A stretch of DNA of 34,423 bases. Origin: a virus. Taxonomy: Duplodnaviria > Caudoviricetes. A model generated the notes under the pieces. The model had not been told where the DNA came from. It worked only from the letters and a program-made list of their open reading frames with translations, and ran no database searches. Location of the stretch: the IMG/VR virus record IMGVR_UViG_3300025084_000103, positions 1 through 34,423 of that record. The stretch is one strand, 5' to 3'. A program made the translations under genes and the position numbers. Positions 2,372 to 12,659 of this stretch are shown here, piece after piece (position 1 is the stretch's first letter; the number at the start of each line of letters is the position of its first letter).

Positions 2372-2404
2372 TTTGGTAGGTAAGGGTTTATTTGCTTACA
2401 TTTG
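2372..2404 (+). promoter_or_regulatory. Bacteroidota sigma-type promoter
   Basis: TTTG(2372)-N21-TACATTTG(2397-2404). Confidence 0.7.
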
Positions 2405-2407
2405 TAA

Positions 2408-2495
2408 TTCACTTATGTTTCTTAATTGACGTAATTGTAAATATTTTGGGGAAAATGTTTGAATAGGGTTCATTAATTTGTTCCCTATTTTTTTT
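2408..2495 (+). ncRNA. Candidate ~85-90 nt small RNA
   Basis: Bounded by consensus promoter and terminator, no ORF over a few codons; carries ATTTTGGGG complementary to early leaders. Confidence 0.5.
2462..2495 (+). terminator. Rho-independent terminator
   Basis: AATAGGG...CCCTATT stem followed by T run. Confidence 0.7.
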
Positions 2496-2526: not shown

Positions 2527-3288
2527 ATGAAACAATTTCGACCAAGATTAACTCAAAAAGAATACGAACTAATACAACAGCATCGTGGCAATAGTGGTGT
2601 AGGAATCATAGGAGATACTCACGAACCATTCTGCCACCCTGATTATAGAGACTTTTGTTATGAAGTATTTGATAGATTTGGTGTTTCAGATATAGTACAC
2701 ATTGGAGATGAGGTAGATAACGCAGCACTTTCTTACCACGAGAAACTGACAGATATGCCTAACGCAGAAAGCGAAGCAGAACAAGCACAAAGAGCTATGG
2801 AGAAGTGGTACGCAACCTTTCCTGATGTTAAGGTGTGTGTGGGTAATCACTCGGCACTACCTTTTAGACAAGCTACAACAGCAGGTATTCCTAAAAGATT
2901 TTTAAAGTCTTATGAAGAAATATGGAAAGCACCAAAAGGTTGGAAGTGGGAACTTAATTGGGAAATAGATAATGTTATCTATGAACACGGAACAGGCTCA
3001 TCAGGTGCAAGAGCTGCTGTAAACAGAGCAACTGCTAATAGACAATCTACGGTTATAGGTCATTGTCATTCTTTTGGTGGAGTAAACTATATGGCTTCTC
3101 GCAATGATTTAATCTTTGGTATGAATGTTGGTTGTGGTATTGATGTAGATGCTATGGCATTTAGCTATGGTAAAAACTTTCCTAAAAAGCCTACTCTTGG
3201 CTGTGGTGTCGTTCTTGACGGTGGAAAGACTGCATTGTTTATTCCTATGGACTTAGGTTCAAAAATAATTCACAAGAATACACTCTAG
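2527..3288 (+). CDS. Calcineurin-like metallophosphoesterase
   Basis: GDTH, GDEVD, GNH, EHG and GHCH motifs in the expected order. Confidence 0.88.
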   Translation: MKQFRPRLTQKEYELIQQHRGNSGVGIIGDTHEPFCHPDYRDFCYEVFDRFGVSDIVHIGDEVDNAALSYHEKLTDMPNAESEAEQAQRAMEKWYATFPDVKVCVGNHSALPFRQATTAGIPKRFLKSYEEIWKAPKGWKWELNWEIDNVIYEHGTGSSGARAAVNRATANRQSTVIGHCHSFGGVNYMASRNDLIFGMNVGCGIDVDAMAFSYGKNFPKKPTLGCGVVLDGGKTALFIPMDLGSKIIHKNTL

Positions 3289-3325: not shown

Positions 3326-3355
3326 TAGGTTTTTAAATTAATTGTTGTATATTTG
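3326..3355 (+). promoter_or_regulatory. Promoter of DNA-metabolism operon
   Basis: TAGG-N18-TATATTTG(3348-3355). Confidence 0.65.
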
Positions 3356-3386
3356 CATCAGTTATTAACAAATTAACCCCAATTAT

Positions 3387-3614
3387 ATGGAACAGATTAA
3401 GGTAGAAACAGTAAAGAAAGGCGATGTCCTTTTTCAGTTAGACAAAAAAATAGAGTTGGTAAATACGTTTATTGCTGATGACGAGAAGTCAGAGGTTGAG
3501 TGGGCGAATAAAAACAATGAAAATCTAAGAGAGTGGTTTAACGGAAGATTGTCGGCAAGACTTTTCGAGTTAGAAAGCCTTGAGTCTTTAAGAAGTATAA
3601 TAAATAACCTTTAA
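3387..3614 (+). CDS. Hypothetical protein
   Basis: 75-aa ORF directly after promoter. Confidence 0.7.
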   Translation: MEQIKVETVKKGDVLFQLDKKIELVNTFIADDEKSEVEWANKNNENLREWFNGRLSARLFELESLESLRSIINNL

Positions 3615-4477: not shown

Positions 4478-4679
4478 TTTTGAGGTTCTTATGAGAACAC
4501 AAGGAGTAACAAAAAGAAAGTTCGGTCAGATAACAGGAGTTAGTGGAACTACAATAGACAAGTATTTGGAAAACCCTACTATGTTAAGACTAAAACACTT
4601 ATCTTTATTGGCTGAAAGTCAAGAGATGAAGGAAGAAGAATTGTTAAACTTAATAAACGGAGAGAAGAATGAACTTTAG
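4458..4679 (+). CDS. XRE/Cro-like HTH protein
   Basis: TKRKFGQITGVSGTTIDKYLENP helix-turn-helix pattern. Confidence 0.7.
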   Translation: MKKARNSFEVLMRTQGVTKRKFGQITGVSGTTIDKYLENPTMLRLKHLSLLAESQEMKEEELLNLINGEKNEL

Positions 4680-5091
4680 AATGGAGGTACTTCAGTCTGC
4701 TGTTTGTAAACACTACAACGTTTCCCCAACGGAATTACACAGTAAGTCAAGGAAGATGGAGATTGTAGGTGCTAGGAGAATGTTTTTCTTCTTTGCTAGA
4801 AAGCATTTCAATAAAACATACACAAGTATTGCTAATATGTTTGGTGCAAATCACGCAACGGTTATGCACCACGAGAAGAAGATGATTGGCTATCTTGAGT
4901 TTGATAAACTAGAAATGTTGAGATACATTAAAATCAGGGATATGGTTTTTGAGGAGAAAACATTTATAAATATTCGTGATGAATATGACTGCCTTAATAG
5001 AGAGAAAATAATTATTGAGGATAGAATGAAAGAAATACAAGATGAAATTAATTTAATAAATAACAAAAACGAATTTAAGTATGGAAATTAA
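4669..5091 (+). CDS. DnaA C-terminal (domain IV)-like DNA-binding protein
   Basis: VCKHYNVS..L.SKSR..EIVGARRM...IANMFGANHATVMH pattern, followed by a coiled coil. Confidence 0.8.
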   Translation: MNFRMEVLQSAVCKHYNVSPTELHSKSRKMEIVGARRMFFFFARKHFNKTYTSIANMFGANHATVMHHEKKMIGYLEFDKLEMLRYIKIRDMVFEEKTFINIRDEYDCLNREKIIIEDRMKEIQDEINLINNKNEFKYGN

Positions 5092-6136: not shown

Positions 6137-6156
6137 TCAAAAAAAGTTTACCTTTG
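6126..6156 (+). promoter_or_regulatory. Promoter of replication gene
   Basis: TTTG(6126)-N19-TACCTTTG(6149-6156). Confidence 0.75.
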
Positions 6157-6184
6157 CAAAGTATTAACCCCAAAATTATATATT

Positions 6185-6868
6185 ATGGCAAAAAGAATGA
6201 CAGATACGGACAAGTGGAAGAAACGCTTTGTTCGTGAATTACAACCTGAATACAAGCTACTATGGTTCTACATATTAGATGACTGCAATCACGCAGGTAT
6301 ATGGGAGGTAGATTTAGAGGTGGCTTCATTAAGAATTGGAGAAAGCCTTGAATGTGATATACCTGCTGAAGATATGCTTCCCAAATCTTTTTTAGAAAAG
6401 ATTATTGTTTTCGACAATGGCGATAAGTGGTTTATTCCTGAATTTATTGACTTTCAATATGGCGAACTAAATCCAAACTCTAATGTTCATAAATCAGTTA
6501 TTGCACTTCTTGATAAATATAACCTTGAAGGGTATGTAAAGGGTTCGCAAGGGGTACAAAGTACCCTTAAAGATAAAGATAAGGATATAGTTATAGTTAA
6601 AGAAAAAGCTAAAGCTAAAAGGTTTGCTAAACCAACAGTTGATGATATTGTAGATTACTGCAATGAAAGAAACAATATTGTAGATGCACAGAAGTTCTAC
6701 GACTACTATTCTTCTAATGGTTGGAAAGTAGGAAAGAACCCTATGAAGGATTGGAAGGCTGCTGTAAGAACTTGGGAGAAGAACACAACAGCAACACAGA
6801 CTAAAGGTAAAGTACAGCAATCACTAGACACTTGGCAAGAAGCTAGACAAATGATAAACAATGGATAA
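6185..6868 (+). CDS. Replication initiator/replisome organiser (lambda O-like organisation)
   Basis: N-terminal YKLLWFYILDDCNHAG, central repeat-encoded linker, C-terminal KFYDYYSSNGWKVGKNPMKDWKAAVRTWE domain. Confidence 0.75.
   Translation: MAKRMTDTDKWKKRFVRELQPEYKLLWFYILDDCNHAGIWEVDLEVASLRIGESLECDIPAEDMLPKSFLEKIIVFDNGDKWFIPEFIDFQYGELNPNSNVHKSVIALLDKYNLEGYVKGSQGVQSTLKDKDKDIVIVKEKAKAKRFAKPTVDDIVDYCNERNNIVDAQKFYDYYSSNGWKVGKNPMKDWKAAVRTWEKNTTATQTKGKVQQSLDTWQEARQMINNG
6528..6621 (+). repeat. Putative replication origin (origin-like element, copy 2)
   Basis: AAGGGT/AGGGGT at 6528, 6539, 6550 (11-bp period), GGGTAC-AAA-GTACCC palindrome, then hexamer tract; inside initiator gene. Confidence 0.7.
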
Positions 6869-8538: not shown

Positions 8539-8570
8539 TTTGGAATTGTAATAAATTATTTATATGTTTG
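8539..8570 (+). promoter_or_regulatory. Early promoter
   Basis: TTTG(8539)-N20-TATGTTTG(8563-8570). Confidence 0.75.
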
Positions 8571-8662
8571 CCTTGCAAATAGGGGGGAACTCAGGGGGTA
8601 CACTAGGGGGGGTCTTATTGCAGAAACAACAAACATAAATAACCCAAAAAAAATATTACATT

Positions 8663-8989
8663 ATGAATTACGATAGTTGGAAATTAATGTCAGATAGAGA
8701 TGAGATGAGTTATGCACCTGATGGATTAGATAAGTCAGATGTTGTTAGCTTCCTAAAGCAAGAGGGTGCTGATAATATAGATGTGATGGAAGGAGAAACA
8801 ACCTGTGATGTTACCTTTGATTACGATGGTGCTTGGTATGTGTTAGAGGACTTATCGTTAGAAGATTTTGAAGTTATGTCAAACATAAAGGATATGACAG
8901 ATATGTATGATGATACAGGTACTGCTTGTTGTGGTGCAGCTTATGATAGCGACCACAGGAGATGTCATCATTGTAAAGAAGCGTTTTAA
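8663..8989 (+). CDS. Acidic hypothetical protein with C-terminal Zn-finger-like motif
   Basis: TACCGA...RCHHCKE. Confidence 0.7.
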   Translation: MNYDSWKLMSDRDEMSYAPDGLDKSDVVSFLKQEGADNIDVMEGETTCDVTFDYDGAWYVLEDLSLEDFEVMSNIKDMTDMYDDTGTACCGAAYDSDHRRCHHCKEAF

Positions 8990-9027
8990 TAGTACACACT
9001 TTGTTTTGTGTAATTGTGTTTTGTGTT

Positions 9028-9078
9028 AGATGAAGGGTGGGGGTTTTTTAGTTTGCCTCACTTTTCATCTTTTTTTTT
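9028..9078 (+). terminator. Rho-independent terminator
   Basis: AGATGAAGGGTGGGG / CCTCACTTTTCATCT stem then T run. Confidence 0.8.
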
Positions 9079-9131: not shown

Positions 9132-9197
9132 CAAGTAACTGCGAAGTAACTGCCAAGAAACTGTCAAGTAACTGCGAAGTAACTGCCAAATAACTGC
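9132..9197 (+). repeat. Tandem 11-bp repeat array A (6 units)
   Basis: CAAGTAACTGC, GAAGTAACTGC, CAAGAAACTGT, CAAGTAACTGC, GAAGTAACTGC, CAAATAACTGC. Confidence 0.95.
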
Positions 9198-9359
9198 TGA
9201 TGGTAGAGCTAGGGTGTCCTGATGAGCCAAATTCTGTGTTGATATTTTTTTTAAAAAAACATTAGAAAATATTAGGATATTAAATTTATTTTGTTATTTG
9301 CGTGTACTTATATAGCAAAACAAGTATCAAACTTTTTTACAATTATTTTAAAAAAACAT

Positions 9360-9418: not shown

Positions 9419-9595
9419 ATGAAAGTAAAAACAACAGAACAAAGAGGAGGGGGTTATATAAACGAGGTTTCAGTAGCTAAATCAAGAGCAATTAAAACAC
9501 CTTTGCACCTATATTCTGAATGGAATATTAAAGTAAACAAATGTAATTCACTAGAGGAGATACAAACTTTATTAAAAAAAGATAAAAATAATTAG
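9419..9595 (+). CDS. Hypothetical early protein
   Basis: ATG 9419 preferred because 9383 lies inside the promoter; AC-rich leader. Confidence 0.65.
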   Translation: MKVKTTEQRGGGYINEVSVAKSRAIKTPLHLYSEWNIKVNKCNSLEEIQTLLKKDKNN

Positions 9596-10196: not shown

Positions 10197-10217
10197 ATGT
10201 TTGTTTTTAGTTTTGTT

Positions 10218-10255
10218 AAAGAAAAGTTTGCAATTTATTTTGTAGACTTTTTTTT
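10218..10255 (+). terminator. Rho-independent terminator
   Basis: AAAAGTTTGCAA / TTGTAGACTTTT stem then T run. Confidence 0.7.
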
Positions 10256-10257
10256 AT

Positions 10258-10301
10258 GTAGTATCTGCCGAGTATCTGCCAAGTAACTGCCAAGTAACTG
10301 C
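10258..10301 (+). repeat. Tandem 11-bp repeat array B (4 units)
   Basis: GTAGTATCTGC, CGAGTATCTGC, CAAGTAACTGC, CAAGTAACTGC. Confidence 0.92.
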
Positions 10302-10346
10302 CAAAGACCTATAATATATATATTGGTGTGGTGTTGTTTTTTACTT

Positions 10347-12582: not shown

Positions 12583-12659
12583 AAGGGTTTGTGAAGGGTA
12601 TATAGTACCCTACATAATAAAGATAAAGCTATGGTTAAGGTTAAAGATAGGGTTAAAGG
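12583..12659 (+). repeat. Origin-like element, copy 3
   Basis: AAGGGT at 12583 and 12594, AGGGTA-N5-TACCCT 12595-12611, hexamer tract from 12618. Confidence 0.8.

Follow-up and report, generated by a model that had tools for sequence, protein, structure and literature searches.

The cassette between the holin and phosphoesterase genes

The window, meaning the whole stretch of DNA that was analysed, corresponds to an entire virus record of 34,423 bases and represents a ~34-kb phage. Its real-looking genes all lie on the + strand, with products that include a terminase, a portal protein, a Clp-type protease, a tape measure protein, a holin, a metallophosphoesterase and an SSB. Three HTH proteins are encoded. 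An early protein at 4669-5091 contains a DnaA C-terminal helix-turn-helix domain (PF08299). The promoters of the window are of the TANNTTTG type. Since these agree with the Bacteroidota consensus, given in the available sections of the source as -33/-7 elements of the form TTTG/TANNTTTG (PMC6847099), the host is probably a marine Bacteroidota bacterium, likely of the Flavobacteria type, judged from promoter and leader style only. A close cultured relative was looked for and none was found, a single query of genome contigs returned no prophage relative, and a tRNA/tmRNA search gave none. A tyrosine integrase is absent from the window phage and from four related complete genomes (0/5).

Between the holin gene (1982-2371, + strand; phrog_3427, E 1e-22), the last gene of the late/lysis operon, and the metallophosphoesterase gene (2527-3288, + strand; phrog_221) lies a predicted stand-alone small RNA gene of 87 bases, at about 2409-2495. 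The holin gene directly precedes this cassette. The phosphoesterase gene directly follows it, carries its own box-like element just past the terminator and is not a target of the RNA. The Bacteroidota-type promoter (2372-2404, + strand) is composed of the -33 element TTTG (2372-2375) and the -7 box TACATTTG (2397-2404), which are located directly after the holin stop, 21 nt apart, and bear out the consensus promoter claimed in an earlier note on this DNA. The published box-to-start spacing places the predicted RNA start at ~2409 (PMC6847099, available sections). A -7 box or a near variant is found in 38/38 elements of the comparison panel, which was assembled by requiring such a box.

The predicted RNA shows a 5' hairpin (2413-2434, + strand), which fold prediction returns in 14/14 representatives of the tract types and whose sequence is variable among relatives. 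The U/G-rich anti-leader tract, or seed (2430-2460, + strand), is built from the motif CGTAAT, able to pair with AUUAUG across a start codon, plus a hairpin at 2439-2460. The 9-mer antisense to the initiator leader sits within this second hairpin, with GGGG exposed in the loop. The 6-bp stem of the hairpin is 100% paired in seven clade A sequences, which show one U-G/C-G change and no two-sided change. In the clade A alignment the tract is nearly invariant and the 5' hairpin variable.

The intrinsic terminator (2462-2495, + strand) contains a stem at 2462-2489 and a U run reaching to 2495, with a fold z of -4.6, as the earlier note had proposed; the fold z for 2411-2495 is -3.9. As the first terminator after the holin gene, it is also predicted to form the 3' end of the late/lysis operon. 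A sigma-70/terminator scanner reports neither the cassette promoter nor the terminator, because this promoter type lies outside its scope and it requires a loop of 3-8 nt. The + strand within the cassette contains no open reading frame of at least 45 aa, only a 4-codon ATG frame at 2416. Rfam gives no match at gathering score in the window, and near the element only a chance PreQ1 match (E 2.2). Like genes of trans-encoded base-pairing sRNAs in general, the cassette has its own promoter and an intrinsic terminator around a non-coding stretch. In RNA datasets, four runs contain 5-9% of words, in the form of contigs without strand, ends or level, and none of the listed pieces spans the element. 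A small open reading frame on the minus strand with the tract as its leader was considered and rejected: no minus-strand -7 box lies nearby in the window, and an inverted box is present in 0/38 elements.

Complementary leaders in the window

The window contains CCCCAAAAT in exactly two places, once antisense (2443-2451) and once sense (6168-6176), the latter corresponding to -17..-9 of ORF 6185. The 9/9 pairing described in the earlier note therefore holds in its coordinates and is found nowhere else in the window. The count of 2 compares with 0.37 expected, and 6/100 shuffles contain at least two copies. The main target is the leader and start of ORF 6185, a putative replication initiator (6161-6190, + strand; -7 box at 6149). 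A second target is the start region of ORF 8663 (8643-8665, + strand), ~90 nt past the -7 box at 8563. The third and weak one is the leader of ORF 3387, the first gene of an early unit (3375-3389, + strand; -7 box at 3348); the leader homologous to it ranks as best target in several other tract types.

In a control with 1000 dinucleotide shuffles of the tract, the fraction of shuffles as good as the real tract is 0.003 for ORF 6185, 0.009 for ORF 8663 and 0.21 for ORF 3387. The pairing before ORF 8663 is as had been described, and it exceeds chance together with that of ORF 6185. The motif CCCCAA before ORF 3387 is present at 3377-3382, but its pairing is not above chance. For the early leaders at 9419, 9663 and 10545, 0.58-0.74 of the shuffles are as good. 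These leaders are unmatched, so that the RNA is not a switch for all early genes in the window phage.

The energy models rank the targets differently. By raw duplex energy, ORF 6185 is first and ORF 8663 third among 80 start regions. A stricter accessibility model places ORFs 3387, 8663 and 6185 at ranks 9, 11 and 13 of 80, with -2 to -3 kcal/mol; the seed is self-paired in the window RNA. Co-folding ranks the leader of ORF 6185 first among 57 sense leaders (-12.7 kcal/mol), followed by ORF 8663 as ninth, a rank obtained with a short fixed leader window, and ORF 3387 as twelfth. With the long leader, the pairing to ORF 8663 reaches ~-13 kcal/mol. Of the three leaders that the earlier note expected to rank at the top, the initiator leader does so by raw duplex energy and by co-folding. 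According to the shuffle fractions and these ranks, the window taken alone gives one good target (6185), one fair target (8663) and one weak target (3387).

ORF 6185 has no Pfam, NCBIfam or named PHROG match, and its nearest named Atlas cluster is PF09524 at 0.93; its designation as a replication initiator is a lead only. A motif of 76 nt is present in three copies that are 68-75% alike, before the holin gene (1910-1985), inside the putative initiator gene (6539-6614) and before the terminase genes (12583-12658). Each is comprised of an AAGGGT...ACCCT inverted pair followed by TAAAGATAAAG repeats, and the copy before the holin gene is also present in the related locus L301. The motif appears origin- or iteron-like, and through the copies outside the initiator gene the binding of initiator could be linked to late functions or to packaging. 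A stretch rich in G runs (GGGGGG..GGGGG..GGGGGGG, 8575-8615) lies in the long leader of ORF 8663. Such a stretch also precedes the ORF 8663 homologue in relatives, and several contigs end near this place.

Covariation of tracts and early leaders

Eighty phosphoesterase loci were fetched, of which the closer half contains the same cassette between the holin and phosphoesterase genes; the more distant loci mostly show a short gap and no terminator. Whole records were used for 21 relatives and local loci for the remainder. The panel comprises 38 genomes or loci out of 40, since L024 (box mis-assigned) and L072 (a 64-kb phage, no box found) were removed before all counts. The architecture of the cassette is constant across the panel, and its sequences vary. 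Sorting of the 28 distinct tracts into 14 types was done by eye and followed a first view of the matches; types that are related have common ancestry and are not independent.

The types differ in small steps that recur in the leaders. The tract AGGGTT of type F1 faces leaders with AACCCT, GGGGTT of F2 faces AACCCC, TAGGTT of F3 faces AACCTA, and ATGGTT of F4 faces AACCAT. Type C has four T in the tract and four A in the leaders, and type C2 has five and five. The type B tract shows a perfect match of 13 nt to its own initiator leader. One-base changes in the tract are mirrored in several distant leaders at once.

For the statistical comparison, start regions were classed blind to the tract, as early or late by homology and position and by the presence or absence of a -7 box 8-45 nt upstream. 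Promoter-proximal early leaders pair with their own tract at a mean z of -2.18, compared to -0.47 with foreign tracts (37 genomes, 14 types). The permutation p of 1e-5 is the floor of 100,000 permutations, exact-match length gives the same, and the result holds with nine coarse groups. Full-length co-folding with one representative per type yields p 2e-5 for early promoter-proximal leaders, compared to 0.053 for other early leaders. The three control classes (other early, late promoter-proximal and other late leaders) give no consistent signal, with p 0.37-0.70 for energy and 0.055-0.998 for match; one control reaches p 0.036, namely late non-promoter leaders with exact match and coarse groups. 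Within group F, each of the four one- or two-base variants is best on its own leaders (exact p 1/24), and within group C the correct sorting is one of six permutations.

Counts of individual matches point in the same direction. In 21/37 genomes, with 3.3 expected, the best-ranked sense leader belongs to the early promoter-proximal class, and exact matches of at least 11 nt fall in 35 distinct early leaders and one late leader. The strand of such matches in 22 genomes is sense in 45 cases, 31 of them in leaders, and antisense in 14. Against their own shuffles, 11/14 types are superior (at most 6 of 150 as good); the other three, C3, E and J, do not exceed theirs (75, 56 and 42 of 150). On their own leaders, nine new tract variants at the true position in loci fetched later, mostly close to known types, rank 1, 1, 1, 1, 2, 7, 8, 9 and 9 in sets of 23-27 tracts. 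Of the 11 later seeds, two (L271 and L300) are false detections and rank 22 and 28 of 29; the mean relative rank of all 11, the false ones included, is 0.27 on own leaders compared to 0.51 on control leaders. L301 has a new tract type, which comes third among 29 for two out of the seven candidate leaders of the locus. In this locus (L301:5650-5870) the new tract is followed by a second hairpin and terminator ahead of the phosphoesterase gene.

On comparison of these sequences, the complementarity of the tract is shown to be phage-specific and to co-vary with the early leaders. The compensatory changes anticipated for related phages are found as strong covariation across the 14 tract types. Short, imperfect complementarity to distant mRNA starts, kept by compensatory change, is a further feature of sRNAs that the cassette displays.

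The match also persists in mosaic genomes. The window holin is 99% identical to the holin of a type C phage, and five genomes (G014, G015, G016, G017 and L121) have a phosphoesterase that is only ~40% identical, with cassette and leader type unchanged. Mapped on gene trees, seed type requires 17 changes for the holin, 15 for the phosphoesterase and 13 for the initiator; the minimum is 13 with all 14 types, and 12 in the holin set, which has 13 of them. Genes on both flanks of the cassette have been exchanged, and tract and leaders remain matched. Such persistence fits selection for the match, which exchange of a single gene would also preserve. In L031 (3760-3830), the initiator gene is 93-94% identical to that of type F1, yet its leader is different and promoter-less; this leader is the top duplex partner of the type C3 tract of the same locus. 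L031 is possibly a natural recombinant with an adapted leader.

Proposed action, alternatives and related systems

Early-gene shut-off in lytic phages is known mostly through proteins. The reading preferred here, with a probability of roughly 0.65, is that the cassette encodes a trans-acting antisense RNA that would block early translation and whose sequence is also the late operon's 3' end. The broader claim of trans pairing that represses early leaders, with an immunity variant included, is probable and held with greater confidence. The RNA would be made from a promoter of the host type and for this reason could accumulate from the start of infection. The 3' end of the late/lysis transcript would be a further supply, as the terminator is the first after the lysis genes and late transcription would add more RNA. 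Supply from the start and by late read-through would give a delayed brake on early and replication proteins.

The tract would pair in trans with early and replication start regions and block the loading of ribosomes. In clade A, the GGGG loop would nucleate on CCCC of the leader, and the duplex would zip to the AUG; a nearly invariant tract and the kept stem under the GGGG loop are the form expected of a loop toehold. In Flavobacterium johnsoniae, positions -3, -6, -12 and -13 promote initiation when occupied by adenine, according to the available sections of PMC6847099. The duplex would cover the adenines that drive initiation in Bacteroidota lacking Shine-Dalgarno pairing, those around -12/-13 and near -3/-6, so that early and replication proteins would fall as infection proceeds. 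Position -12 is covered by 39/49 matches of at least 9 nt. With -2 to -3 kcal/mol, the target leaders have almost no structure, and since pairing would add it, repression is favoured over another effect of pairing, as we infer from these folds. The early and replication shut-off switch of the earlier note is in this way partly supported, by the covariation and by the first rank of the initiator leader; the weak pairing of ORF 3387 and the unmatched early leaders limit it, and the repression itself is the inferred part.

The same RNA and pairing might serve mainly in competition between phages or in dormancy, by silencing later-arriving kin or by holding the genome quiet in starved hosts, with types diversifying to escape each other. 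That one mosaic phage family contains 14 tract-leader types of mutual specificity would fit this assignment, as would the host-type promoter, owing to which the RNA needs no phage protein, and the role of the c4 RNA in the heteroimmunity of P1 and P7, as presented in the available part of the review PMC12197685. It is nevertheless unlikely as the main function, given the missing tyrosine integrase in all five complete genomes and the empty prophage query; moreover, neighbouring types cross-react (the F2 tract with leaders of A and F1, the C tract with those of C2), and neutral compensatory drift yields types too.

The tract might also have no targeted pairing at all, being either an early-leader relic, inverted and kept alike through descent or exchange of DNA, or a U/G-rich 3' tail of the kind generic to Bacteroidota transcripts, serving protein binding or stability. 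The A-rich leaders are loosely matched by U-rich tracts, other early-region terminators are likewise preceded by U/G-rich tracts, and distant phages with the same phosphoesterase have no cassette. Against this, foreign tracts of like composition match worse, the matches of 9-14 nt are short for DNA exchange, and no element of the panel retains an inverted -7 box. Neither the mirroring of one-base changes in several distant leaders nor the near invariance of the clade A tract beside a variable 5' hairpin would be expected of a relic or tail, which makes this origin improbable.

A reading at the DNA level would treat the matched sites as an operator downstream of early promoters, read by a phage HTH protein, with the inverted copy in the cassette controlling its own promoter or that of the phosphoesterase gene. 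Most matches do lie within promoter-proximal leaders, and their position is tied to the -7 box (residual SD 3.3) as well as to the ATG (3.8). The phage has its three HTH proteins, and RNA pairing is not evident from G-U counts, with 4 wobble-compatible compared to 6 reverse mismatch types per lineage (13 compared to 6 raw). However, the proteins do not follow the sites: types A-F share one C-terminal helix motif in the ORF 8341 family, and F1 and F2, whose addresses differ, have identical versions of the corresponding helix in the ORF 4458 family. Eleven matches of at least 11 nt lie near the ATG before early genes that have no -7 box within 45 nt, the sites show no palindromy, and the inverted copy is placed between hairpin and terminator. 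An operator is therefore quite improbable. Activation or stabilization of the leaders by 5'-end protection, or a main action on host mRNAs with similar A-rich starts, is the least probable assignment and very improbable: matches start near the predicted 5' ends and, in lambda, translation of a host gene is raised by the sRNA PreS (bioRxiv 10.1101/2024.10.31.621285, available part), but the nearly unstructured leaders offer no inhibitory fold for pairing to open, the duplex covers the start region, and the covariation is with the phage's own leaders.

As an antisense RNA of the preferred kind, the cassette RNA would work like c4 and FopS and belongs to neither family. The c4 antisense RNA of phages P1 and P7 is likewise phage-encoded, base-pairs with a phage mRNA at its ribosome-binding region, exposes its pairing sequence in a loop, and varies between related phages in step with its target (heteroimmunity). 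Its target, as far as the available part of the review describes it, is the antirepressor mRNA of temperate phages, whereas the cassette RNA matches several scattered early and replication leaders (PMC12197685). The cassette also differs in its setting, an integrase-free phage and a host type without Shine-Dalgarno pairing. The window has no match to the c4/CI antisense RNA family in Rfam at gathering score, and no antirepressor is present among the 33 proteins scanned.

The sRNAs FopS and GibS of Bacteroides thetaiotaomicron, whose mode of action is proposed to be alike, are described in the available part of the source as chromosomal, multicopy and RbpB-associated, with a conserved seed and polysaccharide-utilisation targets (PMC11697453). 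The cassette RNA, by contrast, is single copy and phage-encoded, has a 5' hairpin, and switches its seed between lineages together with its own targets. Rfam gives no match to this family in the window, which is informative only if release 15 includes the FopS model; the seed of the cassette is internal and variable, in contrast to the conserved R1 seed at the 5' end. PreS/LPR1, an sRNA encoded by phage lambda, likewise acts in trans and has ties to DNA replication during the lytic cycle. It acts on host genes and enhances dnaN translation, whereas the cassette RNA matches genes of the phage itself and is a predicted repressor (bioRxiv 10.1101/2024.10.31.621285, available part). A search of mostly open literature found no description of a self-targeting early-gene sRNA in Bacteroidota phages, and the words Bacteroid and Flavobacter are absent from the available part of the review PMC12197685.

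If the preferred reading is true, a self-targeting sRNA that co-evolves with its leaders would be a timer made of RNA alone, in a phage group that is common in the ocean, and show translation control in the absence of Shine-Dalgarno pairing. Ready-made compensatory pairs are available in the 14 natural types of tract and leader, which are possibly also orthogonal RNA switches for Bacteroidota. A far-reaching and speculative generalization, rather doubtful at present, is lock-and-address timing by RNA in lytic Bacteroidota phages. Here, the end of the late operon would double as an sRNA shutting lineage-specific early and replication addresses, with diversification into RNA-defined immunity groups that decide which co-infecting relatives are silenced.

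U/G-rich tracts precede early-region terminators at 8995-9075 and 10197-10257 of the window, are complementary to generic early leaders, and recur at matching places in 11 relatives (G002, G004, G005, G012 and G014-G020). The G+U fraction at early-region terminator tracts is 0.64-0.78, compared to mostly 0.36-0.5 at late terminators. The tract at 10197 has an own match of 10 nt, no better than with foreign genomes (mean 10.3). These tracts are possibly a second set of anti-leader RNAs derived from 3' untranslated regions. Tandem repeats of 11 bp, of the AGTAACTGCCA type, form two clusters in non-coding early DNA, at 9134-9200 and 10260-10310 of the window.
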